Shown here: piece by piece, positions 5,410 through 53,955 of the stretch
Layout of the letters: every line of letters starts with the position of its first letter
Numbering within the stretch: position 1 is the first letter of the stretch
From: Amphiscolops sp. MND2022
Taxonomy: Eukaryota
Assembly (NCBI GenBank): GCA_964187785.1
Contig: OZ076409.1
Location: forward strand, 62,002,001 to 62,066,000
Direction: 5' to 3'
Length of the DNA: 64,000 nucleotides
Translations under genes and position numbers: made by a program
The notes under the pieces: model-generated
What the model was told of the DNA's origin: nothing
Seen by the model: the letters and a program-made list of their open reading frames with translations, nothing else
Database searches by the model: none

Positions 5410-6201
5410 AATACAATTTGGTGTGTTTTTTCAAACTTTTCTGCTTACTTTCACTATGCTCGCCTGATATTATTTTTCGTTCTCCATTTTTGCTTTTTGC
5501 GTCTCGGATATCCACAATTTTTGCTATTTATGCCGCCGATACCAGCGTTTCGCTTCCGTGAACTTTGTAGCTTATATTCGTGGGAACTCTTGTTTTGCTG
5601 CTTCCATTTTTGTTTCAGTTACTTCCTTCTGCCTGTTTGGGCTTTTGTTGGAGTTTGTGAGGGATGGATTGACGCTTGCAGTATCTCCAGTTCTCCGGCA
5701 AAGAAGAAGACTTAGCTGTGTGGCAGGAGCAATTCAAGGGCCTTCTGTTTCACGAAGAAGCTGCTCAACGTGCTGAATGGATCAGATGCTGGCACAAGAC
5801 AAAAAGTACGAAACTTGGGCGTACTTGGTACAGTGTCTCGGCAGCCGCAGTATCACGATGCTGATGAACGACCGCAAGGGTGATGGTCCGAAGGCATGAC
5901 AACTACTGCGGGATCACTTCAACAGCACCGAAACACCGATGTTGATGAACGATGAACCTAATTCAGAAATGCACAACCCTGCGATTGGAGCCCACGGAGA
6001 GCATGGTTGACTACCGAGCGGAGTATGTGAGTGAGCAGTTGGAGCTCGCTGGTGAGAAAATTCTGAAAACATGTTATTTCCGATAGTTCTTAAGGGTTTG
6101 CCTTCCGAATATGACTATTTCAAAACTGTGCACGATTTTTCGAAAGATGAGGCGTCTTTTGCGGAAGTAAAGAAATCATTAAAAAATTCGAATGTTCTCG
6201 T

Positions 6202-9200: not shown

Positions 9201-9430
9201 TCTCTTGTGTGGTGACAATCACTCGCACTGGCCAGCAACCCTGTAGCCCACAAACGAGCTAAACACATAGAAACCCGACACCACTTCATCCGTTAACTGG
9301 TTGAGGACAAACGCATTCAACTGTCTTATGTCTCCACGAAGAACAACTTGGCTGATATCTTCAACAAGAACGTTACCAAGCCTGCCTTCAATGAGCTCTC
9401 ATCACAACTTCTTCTCATTCACCCATACAA
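6202..9430 (+). repeat. Tandem unit 1 of the copia gag(C-term)-pol region (pseudogene)
   Basis: aacctacaaaatacgacagct begins at 6202, 9431 and 12680, and the ORF set repeats with this period. Confidence 0.9.
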
Positions 9431-12400: not shown

Positions 12401-12679
12401 TGCAAGGCCTGCTCCTTTTCTTCAGATTGATGACGGTGGACACGCCTGTTCTCTTGTGTGGTGACAATCACTCGCACTGGCCAGCAACCCTGTAGCCCAC
12501 AAACGAGCTAAACACATAGAAACCCGACACCACTTCATCCGTTAACTGGTTGAGGACAAACGCATTCAACTGTCTTATGTCTCCACGAAGAACAACTTGG
12601 CTGATATCTTCAACAAGAACGTTACCAAGCCTGCCTTCAATGAGCTCTCATCACAACTTCTTCTCATTCACCCATACAA
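9431..12679 (+). repeat. Tandem unit 2 of the copia gag(C-term)-pol region (pseudogene)
   Basis: Near-identical to unit 1, with the same junction sequence at both ends. Confidence 0.9.
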
Positions 12680-15600: not shown

Positions 15601-15915
15601 GTCGAGTATGTTTCGTTGGCTTTGGCTGCACAGGAAGCAGTTTATTAGCAAGGCCTGCTCACATTCTTCAGATTGATGACGGTGGACACGCCTGTTCTCT
15701 TGTGTGGTGACAATCACTCGCACTGGCGAGCAACCCTGTAGCCCACAAACGAGCTAAACACATAGAAACCCGACACAACTTCATCCGTCAACTGGTTGAG
15801 AACGAACGCATGCAAATGTCTTATGTTTCCACGAAGAACAAGTTGCCTGATATCTTCAACAAGAACGTACCCAAGCCTGCCTTCAATGAGCTTTCATCAC
15901 AACTCTTTCTCAATT
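12680..15915 (+). repeat. Tandem unit 3 of the copia gag(C-term)-pol region (more diverged; continues into the native 3' end)
   Basis: Same ORF set with more substitutions, and retains WVDD. Leads on to the PPT and 3' LTR. Confidence 0.9.
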
Positions 15916-16143
15916 CAGCCATCTCAATCATCAATTTAACCCTAGCCTCCCTCACAACTCAATTTTTTTTAGTTTACCTATTATTGTGTTTATGTTATCA
16001 CTGGGACTATGACGACTTTCAGCTTCTCTTCAACTGATGGATAGAGCCCTCTCAACCGCTGCCTTGAAACGACAGATGGTCAAGCATAGTGGTTCACAAT
16101 CATCAACCAACAACAACCCTCGGAGACTCTCATCAAGTGGAGG

Positions 16144-20132: not shown

Positions 20133-20328
20133 TTTCTTTTTGCTACTGGTAATACCAGTAGCAAAAAGAAATCTTATCATGTTGGGGGGAGAAGACACAC
20201 ACCCGTGGTCGGCAACGAAAGTAGGGAACCCCATAACAGTGTCTATACCAGTCTGGTATAGTCCCTGGTATGGGGTTCCCTACTTTCGTTGCCGACCACG
20301 GGTGTGTGTCTTCTCCCCCCAACATGAT
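20133..20328. repeat. Two adjacent palindromes (19-bp arms at 20133-20171; ~60-bp arms at 20176-20328)
   Basis: tttctttttgctactggta-a-taccagtagcaaaaagaaa, then atcatgttgggggg...aaccccata paired with tatggggtt...ccccccaacatgat. Confidence 0.9.
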
Positions 20329-22904: not shown

Positions 22905-25900
22905 GTTAATTTCACAGTTGATCAGATCCGTGCCATCATGGACAAAAAATGGAACATCCGAAATATGTCCGTCATTGCACACGTGGATCATGGAAAATCA
23001 ACTTTAACGGATTCTCTCGTTTCCAAAGCTGGAATTATTGCCGGTGCAAAGGCTGGAGAGACCCGTTTCACTGACACCAGAAAGGACGAACAAGAGCGAT
23101 GTATTACCATCAAATCTACCGGGATTTCTCTTTACTATGAAGTCAAGGAAGAAGATATGAAGTTCATCAAAGATAAAACTGACGGAAATGGATTTCTGAT
23201 CAACTTGATTGATTCGCCTGGGCACGTCGATTTTTCGTCAGAAGTGACAGCTGCTCTCCGAGTAACTGACGGTGCCTTGGTTGTTGTCGACTGCGTGAGT
23301 GGTGAGTAGATACATAGCGACATTATTAATGAGCTCCATGCTCATTCACTACTTTTAGCAGTTTAAGAATAAACAACTTTCCATGATAGGCTTTCGTATC
23401 CTGACTCGATTGCCACAAATGTCTTGCCATCGGAATTTTCTGTTCAGCTTGGTTCACAAAAAAACTTTTCCCACAGTGTTTCTACTGACGGTTTGTTTAA
23501 CATTACTAGTCACGGAAACGGCTGTCAACACCGGTTGATTCGGATTTTCGTTTAATTCGATTGTATCAGACCCAGTTTCGCGACGACCAAAGTAATATCA
23601 GGTTAATTCATATTTCTCACGCGATCCCAAGCGATACGAAATACTGATGCGGCTGTAGTTTCTTGAAATTCTATTTGATCAATTTTCTTGAAACACTTGA
23701 TCATAAGCAACCACTGAGCGATTGCTTGGAAAGAGCGAAAAACGTCCAAAACATCACCGAGGTTGGTGCTTAGCTAGTCAAGTCACTGTTGGCAAATCTT
23801 CGTGTTGAATATCCAAGATGTAAATGCAAAAATTCAATCACATTCCTTTGGCTATTTCTCAAACTAAACTAGATTTTTGTTCATTCAAATAACAAAGCAT
23901 AGTCTCAGATTTGTATTTTTTGTGAAACTTATTTGATTCACAGTTTGCCAAATCTCAAATTTTAAATGTGAGACGTCTTTCATGAATTGGAAGATCCATG
24001 TATCAAACTTCGAGTAGAATATGAATTCATCCAAAATTATTCAAAACTATCATGGTACTTTTTCTTATAATTTTTTGCGGTTGTTGATGGTGCTGATTTT
24101 ATAGTATTATTGTCCTGAATAAGGTTAGATAGAATCAATGCAAACTGGAGATTATCATTCTTATACATCTTTGAAAAACAAAAAGTTGCCGTCTATCAAG
24201 CAAAATAAGTTCACAGCTGATAACAAAAGATGGTTTGAAAAAGTCATCTTTCGCTCTTACAAGAAAATTCAATAAAGATCACACTGAAAGTTCGGAGTAA
24301 ACAAGCCGGGATTGCCCTGGTCGGTGCCCCGGTCAAAGCTAAAAAAATTAAATTCATTTGAATGTGCTCGTTGACTATTTTGGGAAAATTCCTAACCTTA
24401 CGATGTCAAAACCCGTAGAAAGTTTATGAGGAAGTTTAGACTGAAACCATGGTGTCGAAAATCCTGAAATGTGAACCTTTAGGGTCGCTAAAACTCATTG
24501 TGCTTTAGTTCTAATTTATTTTCGGGTACAATTAAGACTTGCCAGATGCTTCGAGTCAGCAGAAAAATAATATTCGTACTATTACGCATTTTGTTTGGTC
24601 TGCTCAATTTACGCACTTCATTTCCACTACCGGGGTTCTCGAATTAAGCTTTGAATTCGTTTAGTATAAAATCTGTTTTGTGTTGTATAGGTGTTTGTGT
24701 GCAGACAGAGACAGTGTTGAGGCAGGCTATTGCTGAGAGAATTAAGCCTGTTCTCTTCATGAACAAAATGGACCGCGCTCTCCTCGAACTGCAGTTGGCT
24801 CAAGAAGATCTTTATCAGACTTTCCAGAAGTGTATCGAAAACGTGAACGTGATTGTGAACACATACGCTACTGATGAAGAAAACAAAGATTTGGGTAAGA
24901 TGGACGTTGATCCTCGAGAGGGCACAGTGGGGTTTGGCTCAGGATTGCATGGATGGGCATTCACATTGAAACAATTCGGCGACATGTTGGCCAAAAAGAT
25001 GGGCGTTGATAACAAGAAGCTCATGTCCAAGTTGTGGGACGATTGGTGCTTCGTCAAGACGGAAAAGAAGTGGAAAAAGCAGCAGCCGACAGACGACTGC
25101 CCCAGAGGTTTCTGTCAATACGTTCTGGACCCTATCTACAAGGTTTTTAGATCAGCACGTTTTAGTTTTATGTAGGGCACATTATTGTAATTAGTCACTG
25201 AACTCAATTTTTAATCGGTGCTTTTCGGAGAAAAGAACCGACTATATAAGTGGTATTTCAAAAACCTGCGAACTGACAGATTTTATTGAGAAGTTTTTTC
25301 GACCCAAGTGCCTCGTTTTGATCTTTAGCAGACCTCAGATCAAGGTGACCTCGTTGATTATTGTTTTCAGTTTGTTCATTCATGATTTTGGTTTTCGGCG
25401 CTTGATCAAGATGTGAAATAGTTGACTCTTCTTGATTGAATTACCGCGTTAAAGTTGATTTACTGAATCTTGTACTGGAATGTAACTGAAATCTGCAATC
25501 AATCGAAAGTGATCTACAAATTATCTTTTGCAGAAAAAGAGAATGAGTTCGGAACTGTTAAAAAAGGGCTCCTAACCTCAAAGGTTATGGCCCCAGGCGT
25601 CGCTTCCGCGAAAAGAGAAAGTGTCCTCGGCCTCAAAAGCAAAAAGGACAACAACGAAATTTAAAGAAGAAAATAAACGATTGAAGTTCGAACGAAATTG
25701 TCGAAAAAAGCATTGTAATTGAAAAACTTGATTGTTTTACTCGAAGAACTCTAAAAAATTGTTATTGAAAAGCAATAAGAAGGAACATTTCGTTGAACTG
25801 TGGACAAACTTGACGACTGGTCTTTTCATTTGAACAAACACTTTTCCGGAAAACTATGAATTTTAGGTGCTTCCGGTAAAATGGATATTCAAATTCGCAG

Positions 25901-28900
25901 TTTAAAAAAATTGACCGTAGGTTTTAATTGTTTGGGTGCGTCAATTTCCTTTATTGGTTTCGACAGTTTCCCACAAAATCTAACCTTGATTTCTATATAA
26001 AAAATCCAAAAGACATTGTTGAACAATAATTTCATTCCAATATTTTAAAAAAAACACCACTGAGAGCGAAGCAAACCTGTTTTTGATGATGGCGAATGCT
26101 GTGACAAAACTGGAAAGCTTGAAGTTTTGAGGTAAAGACGAAGCTTTTGTCCTGTTCGGTGAACATTTCGAAACCCGTATGTACCTGTTGAAGCTGTGTG
26201 GTGTGTTATTAAGAACTAAAACAGAGGAAGACTTTTAACGGGAAGACAAGTCTAACGCTTCACGAGAGCACCGCGAGGAAGCCCGTGTTAAGGCTCCAAA
26301 AGTTTTCGAGGATAAAAAGTATCATGTGTGGTGTGAGTTGGTGCAGTGTTTGGATGCAAAATCTGTGTTGTTTCTCCGTAGTCAAAAAGGAGATGGTCCA
26401 GCCGCGGGGGGTAAATTGTGTGAAAGGTTTAGGAGTTACGAGCGGCCTCGTTCGCAACATTTGATAGAAAAATTAACATCACAGAAAAGAAAACGCGGAA
26501 ACTGTTATTGAATACATTACTCGAGCAGAAGACATTCAGTACAACTTGAGACGAATTGGGGAAGCAGTGTGGGGACAAATGTTCATCTCCATACTCCTGA
26601 ACGGTTTGCCAAAAGAGCACAAAACATTCGTAACCATGGGTAAGTTTAACAAAGACAGAATGGATTTGGAGGAAATCAAAAGAGACCTCGTGAACTTTGA
26701 GTTCGACCTTGAAAACACAATCAAGGAAGAAAGTACATTTTTTGCAACAGCAACAGTGAAGTGCTGTGTTTGTGGTAACATTGGTCATAAGCAAGCAGAC
26801 TGTAGGTTCAAAAAAGAAAACAGATCAGATCAACAGAAAACATTCAAGTGTTACAGGTGCGGAAAAACGGGACATTTTGTAAACGAATGTAAAGACGGTG
26901 AAAATGCTAGTTTGAAGTATTGTAATAACTGCAAGACAAAAGGGCGTGACATAACAGAACGCTTCAAAAAAATTCTTTTGGTTTTCGGCACTTGATCAAG
27001 ATGTGAAATAGTTGACTCTTGATTGAATTACCGTTTTAAAGTTGATTTACTGAATTTTGTACTGGTATGTAACTGAATTCTGCAGTCAATCGAAAGTGAT
27101 CTACAAATTACCTTTTGCAGAAAAAAATGAGTTCGGAACAGTTAAAAAAGGGCTTCTAATCTCAAAATTGTTTTGGTCCTGTTGAACTGATGAGAATTTT
27201 CTCAATAATTGCGGAAAGGACCTACGGTATTTTTCGGCGCGATGCGTCCCCGAAAGAGTTTTTTGTTTGTTCAAAGTGTACCCTCTTCTCTTTTCGGCTG
27301 GAATGTGTGTTCGGCTTGAAAAAAGAAGCGTTTTGCGATTTTGGGCACTATGTGAGTTTTGAATACTAAAAAATTGGTTTTATGGTGTTTCCAGTTGGGG
27401 GAAAAGTGGTTTGTAGTCTTCTTCGTACCCCTTCTGGATTTTTCGGCACCCGTAAAAGTGATTAAGTGTTAACAGTTTCTTCTGCATATTTATAAGAAAC
27501 TTGATTTTTTTCGTTCCCTTGGGCGTTCCCCCAACTTGGGCTGTTCCCGGGTTGTTCAGAGTAGTACTGACCTGACTCTACGCTCTTTGAGCACTAATAT
27601 TCGATCTTCAAGAACTTGCCTCGAAATTATTCTGCACGATAGTAACTCTGGTGCATGTTGGGCTCGAAAATGGCTCAGTCTTCTCGGTTTAGGTATTCGA
27701 CGCTGCTATGAATGACAAAAAGGATGTTCTGACGAAGATGTTGCCAGTTCTGAATGTGGAGTTATTGGATGCAGAGAAGGACCAGATGGGAAAGACTCTG
27801 TTGAAGACGATAATGCGAAAGTGGTTGCCAGCCGGAGACACTCTGCTACAGATGATCACCTTCCACTTACCGTCTCCCGCTCAGGCTCAGAAGTACAGAA
27901 TGGAAATGTTGTACGAAGGACCCCACGACGACCCTTGTGCCACGGCTATTAAGAACTGTGACCCAGAGGGCGAACTGATGATGTACATCTCCAAAATGGT
28001 GCCGACCAACGACAGAGGTCGATTCTACGCTTTCGGTCGAGTCTTCTCAGGAAAAGTGTCTACCGGACTCAAGGCCAGAATAATGGGACCCAACTTCGTG
28101 CCCGGTGGCAAGACAGATCTCTACTGCAAATCCATCCAAAGGTAACCCATACTCAGTTCAATCCATCCTTTCAACTATATTTCGACACCAAATTGAAAAT
28201 CGTGGAGGTGGGATAAAAAGATTTTAGAAACTCGTCAAAATAAATGATTGTTTTAGTTGCATTTCAATCTTGTTCTGGGTCCAGTTCTCAATTGCAACCC
28301 TATTTTGGCTAATCTATAAATTTTTTCTCACTGAACTACAATTTTCACTGGGTTGAATTACTGTGAATTTGAACTACAATAACTTATTTGACTGAATAAA
28401 TTAATTATAGGACAATACTAATGATGGGTCGTTATGTGGAACCCATCGATGATGTTCCTTGTGGAAACATCTGTGGTTTGGTTGGAGTTGATCAGTACTT
28501 GGTGAAATCTGGTACGATCTCCACGTACGAGAAGGCTCATAACTTGAAAGTGATGAAGTTCAGTGTCAGTCCCGTCGTCCGAGTTGCCGTTGAATGTAAA
28601 AACCCGCAGGATCTACCCAAGCTTGTCGAAGGTACCACTTTGCTTTTTTGGCTACTTCAGCCTTATTATTGCGAATGTGTCCATTGTAAGGTCTCATTTT
28701 GGAACTCACTTGCATTCGCCTATTTCGAGTTGCCTCACTTTGACCCTTCTTTTTTCAAGAAAATCACTGCAAATTTTATGATAAATTTTTCAATACGTCC
28801 TGATAAAAAGTAGAATTTACCTGATGCTTCCGTGTTGTCAGGCTTGAAGCGATTGGCCAAATCAGATCCTATGGTGCTGTGTGAGTTCCCCGAGGGTGGA

Positions 28901-30063
28901 GACCACGTGGTGGCAGGTGCCGGTGAATTGCACTTGGAGATCTGTTTGAAAGATTTGGAGGAAGACCACGCTTGTATTCCCATCATCAAGAAAGACCCCG
29001 TCGTGTCCTTCAGAGAAACTGTCATCTCATCGGGAAAAGACCCTGCTCTCAGCAAGTCTCCCAACAAGCACAACCGATTGTTCGTTACCGCAGATCCTTT
29101 CCTGGAAGGACTCGCTGAAAAAATTGACCTTGGTGACGTTAAGGCCAGTGACGAAGCCAAGGCCAGAGCTCGATTTATATACGAGACTTTCGTGAAAGGA
29201 GACGATAATGAAGCTGAATTGGTAGAAGCACAATGGGGACCCGATGATCTGCGCAAGATCTGGGCTTTTGGACCTGACACATCCGGACCCAACTTCCTGA
29301 TCGATGGTACCAAAGGTGTACAATACTTGAACGAAATCAAAGACAGTTTCGTGTCCGGCTTTCAATGGGCCACCAAAGAGGTGAGAATTGTTTGCTTACA
29401 TAGTGTTTTAAATGTATGCTGAACAAAATTACAACGTTATGGACTTTAAACAGGGTGTTGTTGCGAATGAAAACTGTCGAGGAATTCGATGGAGAATCAA
29501 TGACGTCACATTGCACACTGATGCTATCCACAGAGGTGGTGGACAGATCATTCCCACTGCTCGAAGGGTGTTGTACGCTTCACACTTGCAAGCAGATCCC
29601 AGAATGGTGGAGCCCATCTACCTTTGCGAAATCCAGTGTCCCAATCAGGTGTACAACGATGTCAACGGAGTATTGAATAGAAGACGGGGAGCCATATTCG
29701 ACCACGGCAATTTGGCCGCTTCTCAACTCAACTTGAAGTCTTATCTACCCGTTCTGGAGTCATTTGGTTAGCTCGAATAAATGCTCACATTTAAATATTG
29801 TGAAGTGCGAGCCCTCATACGATTTTTTGTTTTGCTTTTCTCGGCGTACTTAATTTGCGAGTTTTGCAGGTTTCACGGCTGAGCTCAGATCAAAGACTGG
29901 TGGTCAGGCTTTCCCTCAATGTGTATTCGATCACTGGGACATTCTCAATGATGATCCTATGGAAATGAACTCGAAGACGAATGTGATCATCCTCGGCATC
30001 CGAAAGAGAAAGGGAATCAAGGAAGAAATCCCCAAACTGGACGACTACCTTGACAAGCTGTAA
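22905..30063 (+). CDS. eEF2: Eukaryotic translation elongation factor 2. Coding exons 22905-23301, 24691-25142, 27693-28141, 28411-28631, 28842-29380, 29454-29766, 29870-30063; initiator ATG not located
   Basis: Motifs [48 protein letters not shown], the diphthamide motif [11 protein letters not shown], and C-terminal YLDKL*. All six introns are GT-AG with matching phases. Joined exons total 2565 nt (854 codons plus stop). Confidence 0.96.
25386..27166 (+). mobile_element. Internally deleted copia element (LTR-PBS-gag-LTR) in an eEF2 intron
   Basis: ~190 bp direct repeats at 25386-25582 and 26976-27166; PBS GGTTATGGCCCCAG at 25583; gag remnant with zinc knuckles [14 protein letters not shown] and [14 protein letters not shown]; no pol. 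Confidence 0.85.
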
Positions 30064-31689: not shown

Positions 31690-34118
31690 AGAACTTCCCC
31701 TTTATTTTCAAACCTAATCAAGAGGGAAATAGTATTCATTCCATATTAAATACCAATCAGTACTAGTAATCTAGTCAATTAGATAAAACTAACACTCCAT
31801 TGCTTTTATTCAAATTAGCTGACACTCAGTTTATTCACACTTTTATTCATTATTCAATTGAGAAGTTATTCTGCTGCCGCCGCATGGGCCGATGGTCTTT
31901 GATGAAAATTGTTGACAGAAGATTAACAATAGTCAACACTCTAGCAGGCACTTGAAAACCTTGAAGATGTTAATAAACAGCTTCAGAAAGTCATTGAAAA
32001 CTAGTTTCTAAGTCACTATCAATTACAATGAAGGTCACCCCGAAACCAATAAGGAAATGTTAGAGATACTTTTAAGGGCTAGCAGGAAGATTTTCCCGCT
32101 GTCTCACACGATAAATCGAATCAAGACCTACCGTCTGATGAGCGAGAGTCAAATTTTTTTTGCAAAGTCAAAATTGAGACCAGTTGCTTCTAACTACTAA
32201 CAAAATTGCCAAGAAAATGTTATTGGAAAAATTCCGTGAGGAAATGAGTCTACTGTTCAGTCTAGATGACCTTTCACGCCCGTTTGTAAGTCCTGGTTAC
32301 TTTTCATCGGAAAAAGATATGGATGTGGATGTAGGATCATCTGCAGGTTCAGACTGTAGCTCTCATAATATCCAAGTTCTGGCTTGCTATAGAAACCTGC
32401 CCGTCAACACTCAACCAACAGTAGCGGAGTACCCAATGACAACCGATTTACCAGACCTGCTGGAGCAAGAAATAGCTAATTTTGACTGGGGAGAACCAAA
32501 ATGGGATCAAGAGTATCATCAGCCACATGAAGATATGTTTCGAGTGGGAGCCGGACTGAGCACTTACAATTATACAACGGAGTGTCCAATTGATAAGTGT
32601 GCTGACTTAACGCCGCTACTAGATTCCATTTCCTCTATCGTCAATTCCCACATTCAAGGAATTAGTGTGCGAGTTTCTGGGCGTTGCGGGGAACCACACG
32701 CCGTTGAATATGGACAGTGTAGTGTGTGGAAGAACGTACGAACAGATCAAAGAAACTGCCGTTTTAACTTTTTTGGAGTCAACCTCGCGACGAGATGAGA
32801 ATTATCATGAGAGAAAGAGGAGGAGAAAAGCGTTCCCAGCAAGAATGGACCAGGGGACATTGCTCTTCGTCCCTAGGGGAGTGTCACAAGCTGCTGCTTG
32901 TGACGGCAATATGTACCAGATTGATGCCGAAGGGGATTACTCTAATCCTCCTCCTGGAATTCTAGCTATTTAGAATCAAGAAGACCTAACGTCCGCCCGG
33001 CCACAACAGAAAATATAAATCAGAACTTAATTTTGATCATAAAAGTAAGACTTTTTTCATTTAGTTAGTTATTGCGATTATCCTGCTTACACTATTGTTG
33101 TATTGTTGTTGAACTGTAAAATTGATATATTTTGATGAAATGTAAGTTATTTGACTTCCCTTTTGACAATTGTGCATCTCTATTCAAGTGCATGAAATGT
33201 TATATAGTTATTTCGTTGCGAACATGGTTAGTATAGTACTTGCTTTCCTGACGTGACCGATTTACCTGATGTAAAGAGTCATGTCGGTACCTATTTGATG
33301 TTTAAATGAGTTAGTTACGTAATCTAGGTTGGTGCAATTAATAGTAACATGACCAGCAATTTCACGAGTCATATAGTACAGACTATATGTAGCAGACCGC
33401 CGATAAGAGCGAGATGAAAATTTCATTTCAATCTCAGCTATCATCAAACAGTTCCAATTGTCCTCAATTTGCAGTATATTTTGTCAGAACACTTTTCCAG
33501 TTTGGTTATTCAGGCTTCTGTGATTCAAACATCAGATAATTGAAAACTTTGAAACAAACATTTTCCCAATGCATTCAACTCGCAAGCAAAAGGCTGAAGA
33601 GAAGCGCTCAAGGCAGCCGGACGTGATGTCAGACGTAGAAAATCTAGATATCATGTTAGGCAGCTACTCTAGAAATGACGTGGATACCCAATTGAGTGAA
33701 AATGAGGAAAATGCAGACCTGAGGTCCAATGAGCGACATCCAAATTCCAATCTAGGTGAGGAGGATTCTAGGACTTACTTTATTGAATACCAACAGTACA
33801 GAAAGCAGTGAAAAATAGTTGAAACAGTTGAAATGATAGAGCGAAATTACCCGTCAAGTCTAACAAAATGAACGAAATCAAGTTAGATCTGAATTTGCAA
33901 ATAAGGGAGGCTATAGAGCAAGTCATGTCTGAACTTGAAATGGGTGAGAGACCTAATGTGGACACACCGTCCTGTGAGCGACATAGGAGCCAAAGTAGGA
34001 ATGATCCAAATAGAATTTGGGGAAACGCATCTAAATCGAATAAAGACTCTAACATGCAGAGTTAGCTAAAATAAAGAGAATTTGCTTAGCCCTCAGTGTA
34101 GCGATGATGATCATGACA
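31690..34118 (+). mobile_element. Solo (or orphan 3') long LTR of a Gypsy family related to the 37048-52739 element
   Basis: Carries homologues of both LTR-borne ORFs in the same order (32184-32973, and MHSTRKQK... at 33569). Ends ...CATGACA at 34118 with no PBS following. The 5' boundary is a guess. Confidence 0.65.
32184..32973 (+). pseudogene. LTR-encoded accessory ORF (CxxC-containing), frameshifted
   Basis: VCGRTYEQIKETAV...RRRKAF...GTLLFVPRGVSQAAACDGNMY aligns with the ORF at 38945-38595. Confidence 0.7.
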
Positions 34119-35400: not shown

Positions 35401-36637
35401 ATTTTTGTCAGATGGCAATCTCAAACTGAATGGTCCACTTTTAAAATCTCTGCCACACTCCTGCGGTCGCCGTGGCCCAGCACACTATTTCCGAATTTTT
35501 GACGACGTTATATCCAAAATATATTGCGTTTTACCAAGGACGAGGCGGAGGTGAGAAAAGGGCCCAATATGTCCCAGCAACGCTATTTTCGAACTTTTAA
35601 CGTTAAATACGAAGTAAATTGCGTTCTACTAAGAAGGAAGTGGAGGTTCAAAAACGAAAAACGCATTGATCATTTTCTTAAAACTTTGCACTTCTTGAGT
35701 TTTAGGCGGCGCGCCGACTTGAGACGGTCCCGTTTTCTTTTTTTTACCAATCATTGATCGAATGTTTCGAACCCGGTTCCGGAAAATTCAAATCGCAAAA
35801 AATTGCTTATAATCACTCGACGAAAAATTCTTAAGTGCATAAAACCTACGAGTTCCAAGCAAAAGGACAACAGTATGTTTCGTTTTGGAATCTGTTGTAA
35901 CTCTTGCCTTTTCGTTTATCTTTGCGCTTCTTGACTTAGATGTAATTGATTACATCTAAGTTACTTTTGTACAGCTTTATCAGGTATTTAACTGTCGGGA
36001 GTGCAATTAGATTTTTTAAATTGATGAAGAACAATTTTAAGCTTTAACTATTTTTTTTTTCAAATTATTTCAACGAATGTTAGCAACGTTATATCATTGT
36101 TTAGTTGATGAGTCTTTTGCTTCTGGATGTTTTTTCTCGTCTCTGCCTGATTATCTCAGATCGAAGTTTTGTTAACCTCTGAACTGGTCCAATTTTTGGT
36201 TTATCTTTGGTACGGTTACCAAAGGTGTCACCTGTAATAGATCAAAATGTTATTGGGTTCCCTTATTGTAATATTGGGCTGTTTCGATTTTATCTCGGAA
36301 ACATTGTCGTTATTCTTGGTTCTAAGGTTTCAACGTGTATTTTGAGTTTTCAATTTGTTTAGTTTTTATTGTTTCGTCATTTCAATTACCAATTATGATT
36401 GTTACTATTGGTAGTCGGCGCTTTTATTAATTAAAGAGCCCGCCTATTACAGTCACTCGTTTTCTTCTTCTTTTTTAAAGACAGACTCGAAAAGAATTTC
36501 AAAATCTCAGTTTAGAAATCTGAATGTCTTTGAATTGAAAACAATTGAAATGTCTTTGTGACATAAATTCCTTGGATTAGGTTAACATCATTGTGACGAC
36601 TTTTCTCGTTAGTCGGCGTTTTTCTCAAGAAAAAAGT

Positions 36638-36844
36638 CCAACTATTGCAGTCACTCGTTTTTTTGAGACAGACTCGAAGCGACGAAATTTTTGTTCAGTT
36701 TGTTCAACTAAACGAATACCTGGGAAACGCATCTAAGTTGCTAACTTAGATGCATTTCCCAGGTATTCGTTTAGTTGAACAAACTGAACAAAAATTTCGT
36801 TGCTTCGAGTCTGTTTAAAAAAAACGAGTGACTGTAATAGTTGG
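36638..36844. repeat. Near-perfect palindrome, ~102-bp arms, 3-nt loop centred at 36741
   Basis: ccaactattgcagtcactcg...catctaagtt-gct-aacttagatg...cgagtgactgtaatagttgg, with a few mismatches. Confidence 0.92.
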
Positions 36845-37047
36845 GCTTAATAGTATCGCGAAGGGTCCCCCTTTCGCTTTTATTTGAAGTCCCACCACGA
36901 ATTATCCGAAATAAAGCGCTAACGCTTTCGGAATAAAACTTCTGACGATATATCCGAACTATTATGCGTTTAGTATGGAGGGGAAGACGTCCCACGCGTA
37001 TTTTAGAAACTGTGCTTTTTAGGCCTTAGATATAGCGTTGACATAAG

Positions 37048-37597
37048 TGTAATGACTATGGCCTGCAGTGTCCCTTAGATCACATGCAGACTGCGAGTCC
37101 TTCTTTGCAAATTTTGATTTGAAACCGGATGAACATTCCCTATGTTCCTGACTATTTGGCGATATGCTAGCCTCGGTGTCCCTATTCCCTGAAGAGGACA
37201 TAGAACTTACAATGTTCTGGATTTCGGGAATGACTCTCTCAGTCATAGCATTGTTGATGGGTCTACTTATCTGACTATGCATCATACACATCATTGCGTC
37301 CATTTCCTGAGATAATCTGAGATTAAACTCATTTGAAAAGGTCTCAAAGGATTGTCTAACATCGTCTTGCCTAGTGGGGTTATTTTCATAAGTAAAACTA
37401 GCAAAATGGTTCTCCAAATGCGTGTTTGACTCTACATCTCCTTGTACTGACGATTGTTCAATAGCATCGGCTAATTCTCTTTCTATGGGATTGTCATTCC
37501 CATTCCCTAACATCTCGTCCATTTTCTCTATATCGGACAACATGTCCATTTCTCGTGACTTTCTAGCTTTCGGTTTCTGACGTCTGGTAGAATGCAT
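37048..37597 (-). CDS. gag N-terminal segment encoded inside the LTR (183 codons, MHSTRRQK...GHSHY)
   Basis: Open frame up to the LTR end. At the 5' LTR the next codon is ATG at 51169, which opens the gag ORF 51169-50504. Confidence 0.7.
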
Positions 37598-38594
37598 AAG
37601 AGATTATTGCAAGAGGTAAGAATTTGAATTTGGTTCTTTAGGCTTGCAAACAACATTTTATTCGGGCATTTACAACGAACTGATTGTGACTGGTCTAAGA
37701 CAATTCATATCCCCGGGACCACGGGTCCCGGTTATTTATAATTAACCTAGCATGACATTCAAATTATTAGGAGTTATCAATCTAATTTTAGCAACGATTT
37801 TCTAAAAATAACTGTAAAGGACTGCGTGTCCTTACAAGTGTAATGATAACATTCTAAAAATAGCAACTATCTCGACGTATTTATTATACACACTTACATA
37901 TGCATATATATGTATATAACAACTACGTCACTGGTTGTTCATGTGGTCTTATAGGTCGTTCAATTGACTTTCATCAGGCAACAATACATGTACATCAACT
38001 TGTATTCATTTACATGTAACAAATATGTATGAGGGTGGCATTTAGACACATGGTCCATAATTCATGGCTTTTCAATATATAAACTGCCCATTTTGTTCTT
38101 CATTGAGGAAAGTTTGGAAACAAAAAGGGGGGAAAGGACTGGGAGTCCCATATGATCTCAAAGATGAACTTTAATCAAAGTACAAGCGTCTTCACTGAGA
38201 CAATTTACTATTGGTCTTAATGGCCGTGTTACTTTATTAATCACTCACTGAATGTAGCACTTCTTTCAAAGTGAACCGGTGGTCCAATCGTCATAGCAAC
38301 GACGGTAATAAATACTGCACAATATGGTACTGGATTGCAAGTATGCTGCGCTCTGATTGGTTAATATTCTCGCGGACTGCTAGTCCAAGGCGACAAGCAA
38401 AGGAACATTTGAACACGTTTCCTTTGCCTGTACGCCTTGGTGTCCAATTATTAACTCTTATTAAAAGCGTATTGCATTTTTACATGTGTACAATAGTAAA
38501 ATGGACTAAGAGTACTAATTTTACAAGTGATCCGAATAATAATATTGAACATCAATTTAACAACATAAAATAGTGAAACTGCTAAAAAATAGTT

Positions 38595-39427
38595 TTAGTT
38601 TAAGAGGAGAGTACCGGGAAGTTCTTGATGGCAGCTATAACTTATAGTGTAGTAGTTTCCATCGCAGGCGGCAGTCCGCGACACTCCCCCTGGCATGAGA
38701 AGAAATGTCCCAGCAGTCATTCCGTCTAGGAACGCTCTCTTTCTCGCTTGTTGTTCTGCTAGGGTCTCTCCGACATTAACTGTCTTGTCGAGGTAATCAT
38801 TAACGGTTTCCTCTCTTATTTGTGCAGTCGGTTCCCCGCAGATTACACAGTCCGAGTACGCAGTTTGGGCTACACTCCCCCCGAGCTCTAGGTCGTTAAA
38901 GTGACTCGCCATTGATTCTACCGTAGGCGCGTCTGATGCGTACACACTGCTGGATGTAGATACGGGATAATACTGCCCTCTATCTGCATCTGGAGGTGAC
39001 GACGGCGTGTCGACTTGGGGAATTAAGTTGCTGCGTCATAGGTTTATCGGATGGTTGCGTTTGATTCTACCATCCGCGTTAAGGGGCCCATTGCCTCTCC
39101 CGAGACTAAAGTACGTCTGGTCGAAAGTCGGAAAAGGGGGCATATTTGGTCTCTTTGGCTCACTAAACTTGCGTGATGTAGAAGGGAGGGCATCAGGAAT
39201 TGCGATTGGCTCAGACATTTGTGCAAGGCCATCATGCTCACTTCTTCCGATTCGTCTTCCGAAGAGGACAAGAGGTCGTAGAAAGAAGAGAAACTCTTGC
39301 ACTCCATAGCCTCATCTTCGTCGCTAGATATATACATCAAACCTTCACCTGGGGCTGCTCCTTGGAAATCTTCCGGGTATAAACGCTCGGTTTCTTCGTC
39401 TTGTAGTTGAGATGAAAGTTTGTCCAT
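38595..39427 (-). pseudogene. LTR(U3)-encoded accessory ORF, frameshifted (ORFs 39427-39044 and 38945-38595)
   Basis: CVICGEPTAQIREE...RKRAFLDGM.AGTFLLMPGGVSRTAACDGNYY is homologous to 32665-32973; acidic N-terminal part. Confidence 0.7.
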
Positions 39428-40639
39428 TTCGTGTCTCTTTTTGAATATCTTCTTCGCTTCTTTGGAAAGTGATGAATTGCGTTCTGATTTTTTTATCTCG
39501 ATGAAGGCAGCTGATTTCTAGGAGTGAAATTGAGAAAATGGCGGTTTTAGTTTTTATGGACCATGAGTCTCTTCGTTTCTCTTTTCCCGGAGTTTAACAC
39601 TTCCCGATAGGTGAATTCTCGATAACAAAATCCCATCTCCCAAGTTCTTTTGTCAATCCGCCAGTTTGCTTTGTAATCGCTGATAACGGCTTTATTGATT
39701 ATCATCAACTAAGGTAACACTTCCAAGTTAAGAGTGTTGCATCAAGTGTTTATTAACACTCATCCGGTACTTGAGAGTTTCAAGTAGGTGTTGATGCGGC
39801 AGCTAGCCACGCCGTCCATCACCAATCGGATCAACCAATAGGAATTCAGCAAAATTCCTTCAAAGTTAGAATGTCCTCCCAAGGTCGTAAATCCATATAA
39901 GGAATAATAATAAATGAATTTGAAAATAAATAAAATAATGATAAAATCATGAAATAATTCTCAAAATAACAAAGTTTTCGAAACAAAAGAAATGATGTAG
40001 ATACCGCTAGCAGACTTTATCCACATAAGGTCGTAAACTGTAAATAACAACAAATTTGACACCAAACTGTATAGCCACGAACTCCAATCTTGACATCTTG
40101 TCACATCGTCTATTCATCTTTTCAATTCCTTATTTTCAATTCCACCACTTTTATTCTTCTTTTCTCCAGTATTTAATCACATCGTATTTATTCGTCTTGT
40201 ATTTATTCAATAGTTAGTCTTTGATTCACTTGTATTTATATATTTTCATTTCATCTTCTTCCCGTCTTTATCCCGGGACTCAGCGTCCATTTGCCCTTTC
40301 TCCTGTGGATGCTTCGGATTTCATCGGATAGTCGACATTCAGTCCCTTTCTTGGCAGTTCCGCCCAGCCCACGAGTACATTCCATTGTTAGACGATTGCT
40401 CACAGATATCCCTACTTCAGCTTTCAACTAGGTTAGTAGGCCACAAGGGTTTTCTTTTGATTCCAATTGTGAGTTAATTTGAGACTTGATCAGAGTTCTC
40501 ATTTCATTCACCTACTTCCTGTCCAATAACACAAGCTTTCACTTGAGTTCAGATTATCTACTTCCGGAAGATTTTGAGTGCGGTAATGGATTTGTATTCA
40601 GGAAGGTTCCCGCTTGATTTCGTTACCTTGTGTTTAGAC

Positions 40640-43600
40640 ATGTCGACTGAAGAATTGAATGACGTTGCTCCAAGCCGACCTAATGAAACTTCGGTGGGAA
40701 TGCAGCTTGAGCCAGCCGGTACTCTGATCCCTACTCCCCAAACCGCCCTCGAACTGACTCCTAATGAGAAAACTGGGGAAACGAGCCACACTCCCACATC
40801 GGCATCTAGCAGCTCAGCCGCTGAGAGTTTTTCCGCTTATGCAGAAAGGACCGTGGAAGCCATGCTTTCTCGAGAGGGGCCTTCTTCTAATCCCAAGGAC
40901 TTACATGATTCTGCCCAATTTCCAGATTCGGTAGGGCCTCAGCTTAAATCCTCCTCTGTATCCGAGAAGGTCATGGTAAATCCACAAAAGGAGACAATCA
41001 AAGAACAAGCTGGACAGAAAGGGAAGGCTAATCAAGATTCTGAGGAAGAACAGAAGAACAGAGATGTAATCAAACCGGCCTGGACAGGGCTAGGTGATCC
41101 GGCTGAATATTTCACTTGTACCAGCGAGCTTGAAGATCTTATGGGGTCACAGGACCTGTTGTCTCGTGGAATAAAAAAGGGCCGGTCTTTGTCCAGGTTC
41201 CTGCGCAGGGTAAGGAGAGTTCCAGTGACAATGAATCTGCTGAAATACCAACGGAATGTGACCCAGAACCTTCACAAGGACCTCGCTGAATGTCAGTGAG
41301 TGGGCGTACCCTATTGCGAAGGTACTTTTGCGAGAAGGACCCCATTAAATTGCCCCGGGGACATCATAAAATCATCCTTACGGAAGACCAGATGCACACA
41401 GTGTTGAAGACAATCTCGGACGAAACCATCTTGTCGTCTTTCCACCTTATGAAGTCTTTGCTTTTGCAAGCTACTTCAGGCAAAGTCTTGACCAAGGAGC
41501 GATGTCGACACGTGAGCCGTTCGTCACATCCCGTCACTGGCCACTCAAGCAGTTCCGGAGATGAATCAACTGACGTCGGTTCGAATAGTGGAGGCTATAC
41601 TAGTGGCGCCTTCAATACTGACAATGAGCCTGGGAGTTTGTCGTTCTGTCTGGACCAAGACGGAGTTCATTTACGAGGAGGAACTGAAGATTTAGCTGCT
41701 CAACATGCTGAGACTTCCTGTCCCAATCAGCCTCAAGAGACTGCTCCAAACCCAGGTAGTGGATATAGTCTAGGAGACTATGCCCCTTTGTCCACCTTGG
41801 TTTCTAAATCAGGGAAAGTTTCCGCTACCAAGAGTCCTCCCAAGACGCGGCGGAGATACGAGGGACGCCCTGGTAAGGCCATGAAGGAGGCGTACTTTAA
41901 GGGCATTCAATGGACGAAAATTGTCGTAACCGGACCCTTAGACCCTGCACACAACCAGTATAAGTTCTACTGCAGGATTTGCATGACCAACGTGTCAATT
42001 GGTTCAAAAGAGGCGGGAGAGATAGTGCGGCATTATCAGACGGAAACACATTTAAGGAAGGATCAACTGTGGCGATACACGCACCTTAGCCGCAAAAACC
42101 ACGTTACTGGACTAGTCACTCATCAGGTCCGTGGGAAGAATGGTGTCCTGCTGACTCCCCTTGAGCTGGAGAATGAGAAAGTGCTCTTCGAAGGCGCACT
42201 GTTAGTCGACCTTGGAAGCGAGTTCCCCTTTTATGAGGACTACCTTGCCCGACAGGATGGCCGGAAGACCAGTGGGAATGCTCGAGATAGTACCCAAATT
42301 GCATTGGTCGCAGCCATGGTTCCCCTTAGTGGTGACATAGAATTACTACGCACACTCTGGACCCAAGTCGGGGAGCAGATGGACTACCAGGAAGCCTTTG
42401 CTCCTCTTGATTGGAGTCCTACACGTCTCACGGTAAGTCCTTACTTGGATCTGTTTGTAAACCGGTCCTTAATGGGTGATACATCTCCTTTTGTTTAGGC
42501 AGTGTTTCATCACATATTCATCTGTGCCATCGAGGACGTGTCCTCCAGCATATCTACTAGCGACATGTACTCTTTAGAGTTTGAGACCACCGGACGCTTC
42601 CGTACCCTGTCAGTCCGGATTTGGAAACGTGAAACTTTGGTGCGGGTGCAATTGTACCGATGCCTCATATCTCTTGGGATCCCCGCAAGCTACTTCGCCG
42701 GGGCATCTCGGCTACTTTATGTTGCATCTTCCAGCCCCAAGCTTGTCAGTGTGTCGGGATGTCCAGCTTCCGTATTGCAGGCCTTTGATGATTGTGAGTT
42801 GTTCGTCTACGGAGTACAGTACCCTTTCCGGTTCGACGCCTTCTCTTTACCAACTCTCATGCATCAGTCGGACGCAAACGTCTTCGGGACCATAGATTCC
42901 ACTCGCAGCTGAAATACTTGATCATGAGCTTCAGTGGCGTCCTCGTTCGCGCGTGGATTACACAAGCGCCTGCATTGGCTAAGGTCAGTATTTTCTCTTC
43001 TGGAGGTTGTAGACCCGTATGGCCTCAGTCTTCATGTCTTTTAGGCAATTGAGTCCTGCAAGTTGGAAGTTGTGAACAATCCGGCCATCTGTTCTGAGTT
43101 GATTGTCCACTGGCAGGCCGTCTTGGATTACCTTACTAGAACAGCGCCATCAATTGCCAATCAAGGAGTGCTAGATTCGGTAAGGCTTGTGTTTTCATCA
43201 TCCCGTTACTTTGTCCTTAGACTATCAACTTCTAGGAGTTGTTGGGATTGGAATGTCTTGCTGACGTCACTTGATTTTGTTCTAGTCACAAAGTCTGGAA
43301 TGAACTATTATTGCTGATGACCTGTTTCCAGTCAAGTTGGAGTTCTTTGGGCGATTGGTCCGAGATTTTAAGTAATTCCTCATTCTTATAATTTAGGGAG
43401 AGTTAAATATTACCTGATTCTTAGTGCAGTTGTACAAAACTAAGTTTATGTCCAAGGTCCACATCAAGTCGGTTTGAATCAAATCAAGTTGTATTCTACT
43501 TCACAGGGGTTTTCTCTATTTAGATACCAAGTGCTTCAGCCGGAACCTCATGAGACGGCGTGATTCTGGCTTTTTCACCTTTGGCGAATTGTAACGCTAC

Positions 43601-44679
43601 ATTCGCAAGCTGTATAGTCGAGCCATCCTGCCAAAACATACTCCTGCAGATACTGATTGGTCTGGCCTCTTGCAGCTTCCCCTAAATGAGTGCCGAGAGT
43701 TATCTTCCCGGGAATTCCTCAGTCGTCTCAAACTAAAATTCGACCTGGAAGGGGCTTCTCGGGCTAAGGCACGAAAACAGAACAGTGGCAAGAAGAATCT
43801 AAACACCATCATCGATGGGTTAGCGGAAACCGCGAGAGATAATTTCGCCACTCAAGCTCGCAGTTATGTGGTATTCCTTTTGGACTCCCTACTCAAGGAC
43901 ATCAGACTGACCGCTGGTAAAGTTCGAGGGATGGCAAGTTTCGACCTTACTGTCCTGTTAACTCAACCCATGGAGCAGGCTTTGTTCTGTTTCCGAGCTC
44001 TATACCACAGTTTCCAACTCCGTGGTTGGATGTTGGCAGCAGATGAAACTGAGAACCGAGAGGAGTATGTCGAATTCAACGATCATTTCCGAAATTTCTG
44101 TGGAAGCTTCCGGACTCCCGAATTGGTCACGGACGTCGTGGACTTATTGATGCCGATGCCCGCTATGCGTAGCAGGCCCAGGTTGCTTCATATCTTTAAA
44201 CTCAGTTGTCTTTGTTTGACTGAGAGTAGCGTTGGCCTGCCTTCAATTCAGTTCCAAGGAGTAGATACCTCAGATCCCGATTGTCGTTTATCGAGCATTT
44301 TGTTGCCAGCCTAATCATATTTGTCAACAGTGTCACTGTGGATTCTTGTGTGACCGAAGCAGCATTGGCTAAGTTCCACGAGCTTGAGACACGTCTCGAT
44401 TCCGGGAATGTTCCTGGAGATCCTTGGACTCATGTCGATTTATTTCCCGGCCAAGGGAAATTCTTCAAGACACTCATAACAGCTTTCAAGTCGCAGACTA
44501 CTGATGTTAGTCCAATAAAGTTTGTTCGCAGTCGTTCCTCTTCTGTCGTCAACTCAGAGTCTGGAGCCGCTTTCCCTTCGCCTGGGAAAACCGCTAAATC
44601 AGCCCACGAGGGAGTCATCCCGACCTCCGAGGTCACTAAGGCCGTAAGGGAATTGCAAGAAGGATCTTCCAATCAATAA
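40640..44679 (+). pseudogene. Multi-exon zinc-finger, hAT-transposase-like gene, antisense to the host Gypsy; disrupted in this copy
   Basis: Long ORFs at 40574-41299, 41290-42498, 42502-42912, 43063-43317, 43670-44314 and 44281-44679. C-x2-C-x16-H-x5-H finger at 41971-42051. GT-AG introns at 42433-42498 and 42984-43044, and probably 43180-43235. AATAAA at 44675. The transposase relationship is inferred from motif spacing only. Confidence 0.7.
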
Positions 44680-50149: not shown

Positions 50150-51169
50150 TTTTGGGACGTCAATGTGCCCCAGCTCTTTTCCAGCACCGCTCAGCAGGGT
50201 GATTCGTTTTCTTGCATGTGGGGCATTCTGGGTATGTTGGACGTTGGGGCTTTTTACCGTTTTTGTCCTCCAGTTCTTTCTTCTTTTTCAATTTGGGGCA
50301 GCTCTTGCTTTCAATAGATGTGGCCTGTGGCTTTACAATATGAGCATTGTGCGTCTTTGTTGGCGTTTATACCATTAGACAGCAAATTGCTGTTACTAGT
50401 GGACGCAGAGGCCATTGTGGATAATGGTAGGTCATCTGAATTCCAATGCATTAAGTTCAAGCTCTCTTTCAAGATGAGCAACGATCTCTTCATAGGTTCC
50501 GTTCTACAATCGGGCCATATTGACTGATCGTTTCAATTTTGGAGGCAGTTTTGCGTACAACAAGCTGTCAATCATACTTTTCGCATTCTCACCAAATGTT
50601 TTTTCTGCCCCCTGGTCCAGTTCCTCCAAGAAATCCGGCAATTTCATGGTATTCGGGTCAAAAGTCAGCCGATGCCATTTGTGTTTTGCCGTTGCTTGGG
50701 ATTCCGGTTTGACGTATTTCCTCCGGAATATGACCAGCACGTCTTCTAGTGTCTGACGGTTTATGGAATTTATGTTCCTGAATGTCTGCAGGGCCCCTTC
50801 CCTGAGCAGGGAATGAAAGTGGTTAATTTTCATTTGCTCTGTCATGGCCGGTTGCATTTTAATCATCGTGAGGAACAAATCCTCAAAGAGTTCGAATTTC
50901 TCACTCTTTCCGTCAAACGTCATTGGCGTTGTATGGACAGGTCGGATAGTCATCGTTTGTGGTTTGTTTTGCAAGTTGACCAGGACGTCTGCTAGTCGAT
51001 TCAAAGGGTCTTGGGGAGTCTCAGGAGCCACTGTTTCTGGGGCTGGCAGAGTGGTGTCCAAAGAGACATTGTGGTTCGATTGCTGTCTCTCCAGGTTTGG
51101 GATTGAGTAGATTCGTCCAGTGAGGAATTCAGGAATTGGCTGTTGGGCTTCGTTAGCTCCTGTCACCAT
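50150..51169 (-). pseudogene. Gypsy gag (post-LTR portion) with zinc knuckle remnants
   Basis: FDGKSEKFELFEDLF...KINHFHSLLREGALQTF, and CSYCKATGH. Confidence 0.8.
51157..51168 (-). promoter_or_regulatory. Primer binding site TGGTGACAGGAG
   Basis: Begins TGG exactly where similarity to the 3' LTR ends. Confidence 0.75.
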
Positions 51170-52739
51170 TTAATGACTATGGCCTGCAGTGTCCTTTAGA
51201 TCACATGCAGACTTCTTTGCAAATTTTGATTTGAACCCGGATGAACATTCCCTATTTTCCTGACTATTTTGCGATATGCTAGCCTCGGTGTTCCTATTCC
51301 CTGAACATTCCAGAGGACATAGAACTTAAAATGTTCTGGATTTCGGGAATGACTCCCTCAGTCAAAGCATTGTTGATGGCTCTACTTAGCTGACTATGCA
51401 TCATAGACATCATTGCGTCCATTTCCTGAGATAATCCGAGGTTAAACTCATTTGAAAAGGTCTCAAAAGATTGTCTAACATCGTTTCGCCTAGTGGGGTT
51501 GGTTTCATAAGTAAAACTAGCACAATGGTTTCCCAAATGCGTGTTTGACTATACATCTCCTTGTACTGACGATTGTTCAATAGCATCGGCTAATTCTCTT
51601 TCTATGGGATTATCATTCCCATTCCCTAACATCACGTCCATATTCTCTGTATCGGACAACATGTCCATTTCTCTTGACTTTCTAGCTTTCGCTTTCTGAC
51701 GTCTGCTAGAAGGCATAAGAGATTATTGCAAGAGGTAGGAATTTGAATTTGGTTTTTTAGGCTTGCAAACAATTTTATTCGGGCATTTACAACGAACTGA
51801 TTGTGACTGGTCTAAGGCAATTTATATCCCCGGGACCACGGGTCCCGGTTGTTTATAATTAACCTAGCATGACATTCAAAATATTAGGAGTCATCAATCT
51901 ATTTTTAGCAACGATTTTCTAAAAATAGCAACTATCATGACGTAATTAATATACACACTTACATATGCATATATATGTATATAACAACTACGTCACAGGT
52001 TGTTCATGTTGTCTTATAGGCCGTTCAATTGAATTTCATCAGGCAACAATACATGTACATCAACTTGTATTCATTTACATGTAACAAATATGTATGAGGG
52101 TAGCATTTAGACACATGGTCCATAATTCATGACTTTTCAATATACAAACTGCCCATTTTGTTCTTCATTGAGGAAAGTTTGGAAACAAAAAAAGGGGAAA
52201 GGACTGGGAGTCCTATATGATCTCAAAGATGAACTTTAATCAAAGTACAAGCGTCTTCACTGAGACAATTTATTGGTCTTAATGGCCGTGTTACTTTGTT
52301 AATCACAGCACTGAATGTAGCACTTCTTTCAACCGGTGGTCCAATCGTCATAACACCGACGGTAATAAATACTGCACAATATGGTACTGGATTGCAAGTA
52401 TGCTGCGCTCTGATTGGTTAATATTCTCGCCGACTGCTAGTCCAAGGCGACAAGCAAAGGAACATTTGAACACGTTTCCTTTGCCTGTACGCCTTGGTGT
52501 CCAATTATTAACTCTTATGAAAAGCGTATTGCACTTTTACATGTGTACAACAGTAAAATGGACTAAGAGTACTAATTTTACAAGTGATCCGAATAATAAT
52601 ATTGAACATCATTTTAACAACATAAAATAGTGAAATTGCTAAAAATAGTTTTAGTTTAAGAGGAGAGTACCGGAAAGTTTTTGATGGCAGCTATAACTTA
52701 TAGTGTAGTAGTTTCCATCGCAGGCGGCAGCCCGCGACA
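51169..52739 (-). repeat. Truncated 5' LTR
   Basis: High-identity copy of 37048-38683; similarity stops abruptly at 52739. Confidence 0.9.
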
Positions 52740-53786: not shown

Positions 53787-53955
53787 AGTAAGATTTTTCA
53801 AGGTGTCAATAATTTTTTCACCATTTGCACAATTGTATGTAGATGAGTACAAAATTCAGCGTAAATCGGACTCCGATTTACGCTGAATTTTGTACTCATC
53901 TACATACAATTGTGCAAATGGTGAAAAAATTATTGACACCTTGAAAAATCTTACT
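53787..53955. repeat. Perfect palindrome, 84-bp arms, 1-nt spacer at 53871
   Basis: agtaagatttttc...gtaaatcgga-c-tccgatttac...gaaaaatcttact. Confidence 0.95.

Follow-up and report, generated by a model that had tools for sequence, protein, structure and literature searches.

ORF3, an accessory gene of Ty3/Gypsy elements in Amphiscolops that crosses the polypurine tract into the 3' LTR: a putative SUMO-binding factor

Position of ORF3 relative to the LTR

Does the protein encoded beside a long terminal repeat (LTR) of a retroelement in Amphiscolops sp. MND2022 belong to the LTR itself or to the interior of the element, and what might such a protein do? The window analysed here, a stretch of 64,000 nucleotides (contig OZ076409.1, positions 62,002,001 to 62,066,000), holds two segments that raise this question. 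A peptide quoted in a first-pass annotation of this DNA was found in the minus-strand frame 38598-39035, with its N-terminal half in another frame up to 39427, and the second, related peptide that it reported was located at 32623-32970 on the plus strand, spanning a frameshift near 32720. The likeness of the two segments as protein, without a corresponding likeness as DNA, was reproduced (44% over 70 aa, E 5e-17, for protein; 68% over 90 nt, E 5e-4, for DNA), as was their shared position 5' of a gag start of the MHSTR type, at 37591 on the minus strand and 33569 on the plus strand. We assigned these segments and their surroundings as follows.

38595..39427, minus strand: ORF3, sense accessory gene of a Gypsy element, first AUG to stop (broken copy)
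38684..38693, minus strand: polypurine tract (PPT) inside ORF3 (codons for PGG)
37048..38683, minus strand: 3' LTR, 1636 bp, TG..CA, with the last 29 ORF3 codons and the first ~180 gag codons
44837..51168, minus strand: gag and pol (protease, dUTPase, RT, RNase H, integrase) with stops and frameshifts; domains named on related copies
51169..52739, minus strand: 5' LTR, then the primer site TGGTGACAGGAG; C-terminal tail of ORF3 only
32205..32973, plus strand: degraded ORF3 of a distant family (PRGVS clade), with a basic stretch at 32205, an AUG at 32244 and the frameshift near 32720
32882..34100 (right end not defined), plus strand: remnant LTR of a PRGVS-clade family, with its TGTC start inside the ORF and a gag-type start at 33569

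Both ORF3 copies of the window are broken, the minus-strand copy by a frameshift near 39,215 and an in-frame stop at 39036-39038. Intact ORF3 recovered by searching the same genome encodes 260-299 aa, with open frames often of 289-297 aa. The element that carries the minus-strand copy is an old Ty3/Gypsy element with repeats 91% identical to each other and a flanking duplication in which four of five bases agree. It was assigned to Ty3/Gypsy from the pol order protease-RT-RNase H-integrase together with TG..CA LTRs, a primer site, a PPT and a target duplication. Pfam searches of related copies gave gag followed by protease-dUTPase-RT-RNase H-integrase, and a search for RT homologues yielded only close relatives without names, and so no name for the Gypsy clade. 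In the pol frame of one copy (L031), the dUTPase domain lies between protease and RT.

The first-pass annotation had placed the ORF inside an LTR of about 3 kb. The repeats in the window are really 37048-38683 and 51169-52739, and LTRs were 1.49-1.87 kb long in the elements examined; the supposed 3-kb LTR is the real LTR joined to the internal region that contains ORF3. The 5' LTR of the window begins at codons for (V)SRAAACDG and carries ORF3 residues 251-279 only, so that about 89 nt of ORF3 (stop included) lies in the LTR. We fetched both ends of 20 elements to define this boundary more generally. The shared repeat began at TGTC within the V-S codons of GVSQAAACDG in 18 of the 20 and matching 5-bp target duplications flanked 17; across this set the primer site directly followed the 5' LTR. 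The exceptions were L125 and L140, which were rearranged or truncated, and L158, one end of which stayed unresolved. The part of ORF3 within the LTR measured 83-92 nt and comprises the 28-31 C-terminal codons out of about 260-300. A gag start followed ORF3 in all 71 ten-kb loci, and a match to an antisense gene lay upstream in 68 of them. From this flanking order and the start of the LTR inside ORF3, it follows that ORF3 belongs to the interior of the element and shares no more than its end with the LTR. ORF3 is thus the third sense ORF of a Ty3/Gypsy clade, located between the antisense gene and the 3' LTR. An LTR that starts downstream of the ORF was what the first-pass annotation itself had named as refuting its reading, and the LTR does start downstream of most of ORF3; about 90% of the gene is internal sequence upstream of the PPT, and the description of it as LTR-encoded had to be given up.

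The same boundary decided the two viral analogies that had been offered. An ORF of the MMTV sag type would lie wholly or mostly in the LTR, and in both LTRs; ORF3 is mostly outside U3, and this analogy fails. The comparison with nef holds for position, since ORF3, like nef and bel2, is a sense ORF that runs across the PPT into U3, but it is a likeness of position, not of homology, and goes no further. Paired matches 14 kb apart had suggested ORF3 in both LTRs, and were rejected as really marking tandem or truncated elements.

Several other arrangements were observed. Near-identical elements stand head to tail with shared LTRs at a period of about 14.1-14.3 kb (L038-L040 and L041-L042), and at L147:1175-8137 five tandem ORF3 copies with a 1545-bp period precede one LTR. 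The junction of the L140-L147 clade is not purine-rich (..CCCGCAG before TGTCGC), and L143 of this clade has LTRs 99.7% identical and a target duplication despite it. The LTR also contains the start codon of gag and about 180 of its codons (37049-37591 and 51169-51713 in the window, minus strand), and the gag frame continues from the LTR through the primer site. The ratio of nonsynonymous to synonymous change (omega) was 0.083 for the part of gag in the LTR.

Elsewhere, the window contains a spliced host gene at 24648-29768 (plus strand), which resembles elongation factor 2, with a retroelement gag-like fragment in an intron (26477-26992). Three tandem copies of a ~3.24-kb unit, 90-99% identical and with short ORFs, occupy 6000-16000, and near-perfect inverted repeats with arms of 76-106 bp and loops of 1-3 nt lie at 36634-36848, 53787-53955 and 20176-20328.

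Selection on ORF3 and exchange of its alleles

Searching the genome with ORF3 gave 6581 candidates, and 147 of 150 scored matches were free of stops; queries from three other families each gave at least 139-150 further matches. From 179 loci (some copies fetched twice) we obtained 122 intact frames, which formed 25 clusters at 90% identity; leaving out L013, the N-terminus of which is frameshifted, gave 24 families with identities as low as 26%. A one-rate codon model fitted to these families gave an omega of 0.089 over the 217 codons outside the PPT and LTR, far from the value near 1 expected of an unselected frame, and omega by region was 0.080 in the N-terminal part, 0.12 in the middle, 0.048 in the C-terminal domain and 0.12 in the part located in the LTR. 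Synonymous change was saturated in most of the 276 family pairs; the four pairs with unsaturated dS gave 0.078-0.115. The purifying selection that the first-pass annotation had proposed for an accessory protein was thereby borne out, at 0.05-0.12 by region, and since omega is low outside the PPT and LTR, it is the ORF3 protein itself that is selected. Conservation is highest in the block GVSQAAACDG, which overlaps both the PPT and the LTR end, as expected if conservation reflected only cis signals (the PPT and the integrase attachment site) and no protein; with the low omega of the 217 codons beyond them, the open frames among scored matches, and one clade that keeps P-x-V-S though its tract is no longer purine-rich, we regard this explanation as refuted. 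The selection does not look like that of an arms race, though ORF3 alleles differ widely. The youngest families, with LTRs 99-100% identical, have intact ORF3.

No fragment of gag, pol or env was matched in Pfam, and the protein family, which the first-pass annotation had not recognised, was likewise given no name by Pfam, NCBIfam or PDB searches; sequence profiles of ORF3 gave nothing significant in these three, and the catalytic families of known enzymatic ORFs (GDSL, DEDDy) were not matched there either. An env or env-like product was not indicated, as Pfam gave no match of note and none of the 24 families has a transmembrane segment (maximum 19-residue hydropathy 0.47-1.47). Structural models were weak, with a mean pLDDT of 57 at full length and 70 for the C-terminal domain, although a helix pair at residues 203-241 was predicted confidently. 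Foldseek with the weak full-length model found nothing significant in the PDB, and the ESM Atlas had no usable match, with a score of only 0.76 for the C-terminal part. When 1.84 billion representatives were searched with a profile, 573 clusters matched at E<=0.001; among the 150 listed, all were 316 aa or shorter and unnamed, and the 21 inspected resembled the ORF3 family. Viral contigs contained no ORF3 relative, and 2 of 198 candidate stretches from metagenomes were relatives; the relatives in these two contigs are 34-37% identical and have the same LTR junction. A search of mostly non-subscription literature found no published description of ORF3. The gene is real and selected, and without a named family; its function we can only infer.

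The conserved C-terminal domain and the gene upstream of ORF3 were assigned as follows.

38598..38850, minus strand: conserved C-terminal domain of ORF3, with CxxCG, a predicted two-helix hairpin and then VSQAAACDG
40547..44676, plus strand: antisense accessory gene, divided into several blocks and facing ORF3 head to head; C2H2-type finger

In the C-terminal alignment, the CxxC and one distant Cys alone were at least 90% conserved; the conserved Cys and His residues, candidates being C134, H178, C196, C199 and C257, may bind zinc. Three blocks of the antisense gene had omega values of 0.026-0.051, and selection on this gene is stronger than on ORF3. Pfam and PDB gave the antisense gene a weak C2H2 finger match only. 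We had presumed that it resembled a hAT transposase, an identity that neither Pfam nor PDB supported.

Comparison of eight loci revealed mosaic elements (L045, L047, L050, L121 and L124). Some had ORF3 99% identical yet antisense genes 63-65% identical in the finger region, others the reverse, with antisense genes 96-98% identical and ORF3 alleles 54-57% identical; the integrase segments of the mosaic elements were 90-100% identical. ORF3 and its LTR are exchanged as a cassette onto near-identical integrase backbones, and ORF3 travels with its own LTR and needs no allele-matched antisense partner.

Predicted expression and possible function of ORF3

Three features upstream of or near the N-terminus of ORF3 bear on how the gene might be expressed and what its product might do.

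39508..39543, minus strand: CGCCATT and AG-Y-G module with +28 spacing; predicted internal Inr-DPE promoter, start near 39539
39428..39460, minus strand: basic stretch (K-I-A-K-K-I-F type) ahead of the first AUG, degraded in the window copy
39320..39340, minus strand: SIMa-type motif (LMYISSD), then an acidic run, from the translation and the pattern in PMC3395311

The CATT element sits about 65-110 nt ahead of the AUG. A strict RGWYV lay at +28 from it in 9 of 24 families and at +29 in 8 of 24, and the other offsets from 24 to 32 were each used by one family at most. Under the Inr-DPE rule, as the cited part of PMC5580651 gives it, a misplacement by one base lowers activity several-fold in Drosophila. 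The spacing suggests that the CATT-RGWYV module fits this rule better than it fits a splice acceptor, with the +29 families off by one. A splice acceptor at CATT..CAG was itself disfavoured, as purines stand right before the AG, many families have a further AG in between, and one has CGG.

The basic stretch, which lies between this module and the AUG, was in frame in 22 of the 23 family representatives that have the motif, at four different spacings (18, 30, 33 and 39 nt), and it was also found in a metagenome contig. Its pN/pS was 0.13 in frame, compared with 1.09 immediately upstream and values above 2 when the other frames were read; the search pattern itself allowed third-position variation and so accounts for part of this signal, and the codons outside the pattern give only 0.43. 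In 13 of 13 families checked no AUG lies between the module and the first AUG. The Ile codon of the stretch is ATT, ATA or ATC in a CAAA context, and a non-AUG start is for this reason probable: the basic stretch is likely an N-terminal extension initiated at AUU, AUA or AUC. In 12 of 22 families there are in-frame stops 5-13 codons upstream, which speaks against splicing or read-through into the stretch.

The N-terminal part of ORF3 also contains a candidate SUMO-interacting motif (SIM). A SIMa or SIMr pattern, after the consensus in the cited part of PMC3395311, occurred in all 24 families against 2.1 expected from shuffles (about 9% of single shuffled sequences match), in 121 of 122 intact frames and in 18 of 20 database homologues (P0180 and P0290 had neither), and in none of seven other frames of the element. 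All 17 main-clade families keep a hydrophobic core like IIYISSD with SS[DS]; the seven PRGVS families have lost the SIMa core, kept its serines and all have DSDIEVI, a site at which 8 of the 17 main-clade families match SIMr too. As the pattern was picked after the alignment was seen and the families share ancestry, the 24 matches are not 24 independent events, and we treat them as a lead rather than as proof. SIMs work as short unstructured strands, and SUMO-targeted ubiquitin ligases carry a RING domain besides them (both from the cited part of PMC3901395); Pfam found no RING in ORF3, and the few strongly conserved Cys of its C-terminal domain likewise give no sign of such a ligase. The portion of 10.1101/533091 cited here reports that piRNA-guided silencing in Drosophila requires SUMO. 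A host SUMO gene is present, with its first exon at L188:1489-1683 and its nearest named relatives, 79-82% identical, in acoel flatworms, an indication that the host is an acoel.

From these motifs we tentatively favour, at somewhat less than an even chance, the reading of ORF3 as a putative nuclear SUMO-binding factor, anti-silencing or activating, that would relieve the silencing of its element. The internal Inr-DPE promoter, ~65-110 nt 5' of the AUG, would produce a short mRNA that ends in the 3' LTR. Initiation at AUU, AUA or AUC would add the basic tail, a possible nuclear signal, and initiation at the AUG would give a shorter form. The protein would be nuclear and largely disordered; its SIM and serine/acidic run could dock on SUMO-modified chromatin or silencing proteins, and the helical, Cys-containing C-terminal domain could serve as an effector or dimer surface.

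The SIMr site is aligned with the start of a helix predicted for residues 59-75, and would also suit an acidic activation domain: the first 90 residues contain 18-23 D/E with spaced hydrophobics. ORF3 might therefore be a transactivator like foamy-virus Tas, with an incidental SIM match and a Cys/helix C-terminal domain that contacts either the cognate LTR or a partner bound to DNA. The internal-promoter layout is one that foamy viruses have (cited part of PMC3798896), and ORF3 remains linked to its own LTR through the cassette swaps, but this linkage is accounted for by the physical overlap of the two. The net charge is -16 to -27, Pfam found no DNA-binding domain, and the hydrophobic core with SS[DS] is kept across the main clade more tightly, we would argue, than expected of an activation domain. 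We regard a Tas-like role as unlikely.

The basic N-terminal stretch and the possible zinc ligands would also be compatible with a function after transcription (particle assembly, RNA export or nuclear import of the integration complex, like Rev, Vpr or Bet), and the cited part of PMC7264820 proposes like roles for extra ORFs of plant elements. The strong acidity of ORF3 and the lack of a match to an RNA-binding domain argue against such a function, and ORF3 alleles 54% identical to each other on integrase segments 99-100% identical argue against a tight fit to Pol, making it fairly improbable. A SIM could recruit repressors as readily as titrate them, and ORF3 might thus be a self-restraint factor: by recruiting SUMO-dependent repression it would keep its own element in check, or exclude competing families, which are numerous and recombining; the weak non-AUG start would suggest the low dosage that fits this role. 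The youngest families nevertheless retain intact ORF3 and nothing points to repression, and we judge self-restraint distinctly improbable.

Comparison with known systems

Lentiviral nef is an ORF that crosses the PPT into U3, as ORF3 does, and its product resembles the predicted ORF3 protein in being largely disordered with short linear motifs. Unlike nef, ORF3 has only ~10% of its length in U3 and lacks a myristoylation-type start, and Pfam and PDB searches gave no homology. MMTV sag lies mostly in U3 and encodes a membrane protein; ORF3 shares with it a sense ORF at the 3' end and divergent alleles, but is mostly internal and without a transmembrane segment. The foamy virus genes tas and bel2, as described in the cited part of PMC3798896, are accessory genes near the 3' LTR, apart from gag-pol, with an internal promoter (predicted for ORF3) and a regulatory or counter-defence role (proposed for ORF3). 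The ORF3 element, however, is Ty3/Gypsy from a probable acoel host, has no env and shows no sequence similarity that we found, and its predicted promoter is TATA-less and located in a 1-kb gap head to head with the antisense gene.

Known LTR retrotransposons with additional ORFs at the 3' end are the plant elements with extra env-like and antisense 3' ORFs, such as Grande gene23, which has its own promoter and a nuclear product (cited part of PMC7264820), and the rotifer elements with several ORF3 types and dUTPase-bearing pol (cited part of PMC5408684). In both, an additional ORF is conserved between pol and the 3' LTR, and the rotifer clades share the dUTPase. The sense ORFs in the cited parts of these two papers are env-like, GDSL or DEDDy, and by Pfam the ORF3 described here is none of these; it also differs in its overlap with the PPT and LTR, its SIM, its likely non-AUG start and the second, antisense accessory gene.

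In proposed function, ORF3 resembles the VANC proteins of Arabidopsis VANDAL transposons, anti-silencing accessory proteins proposed to undo host silencing of their own family (cited part of PMC6719617), an activity that for ORF3 is conjectural; VANC, unlike ORF3, belongs to a plant DNA transposon and acts on DNA methylation. The cited part of the same 2019 review records no transposon factor against piRNA silencing as known at that time, and counter-silencing proteins encoded by animal transposons have been a long-standing gap. ORF3 is a candidate for such a protein: abundant, young and strongly conserved, it has a motif small enough to test, a SUMO gene in the host and alleles in which the motif has moved. 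A broader proposition, and a doubtful one, is that these elements independently evolved a complex-retrovirus layout in which an internally promoted, non-AUG-initiated, SUMO-binding protein would work alongside a zinc-finger protein of the antisense gene and oppose piRNA or heterochromatin silencing that depends on SUMO, the two genes being swapped as allelic cassettes. If this were true, ORF3 would be a first case in animals of a transposon-encoded protein that antagonises SUMO-dependent silencing. The SUMO reading aside, a Gypsy element that begins gag in its LTR, carries two accessory genes and probably uses both an internal promoter and a non-AUG start has a complexity usually associated with retroviruses.
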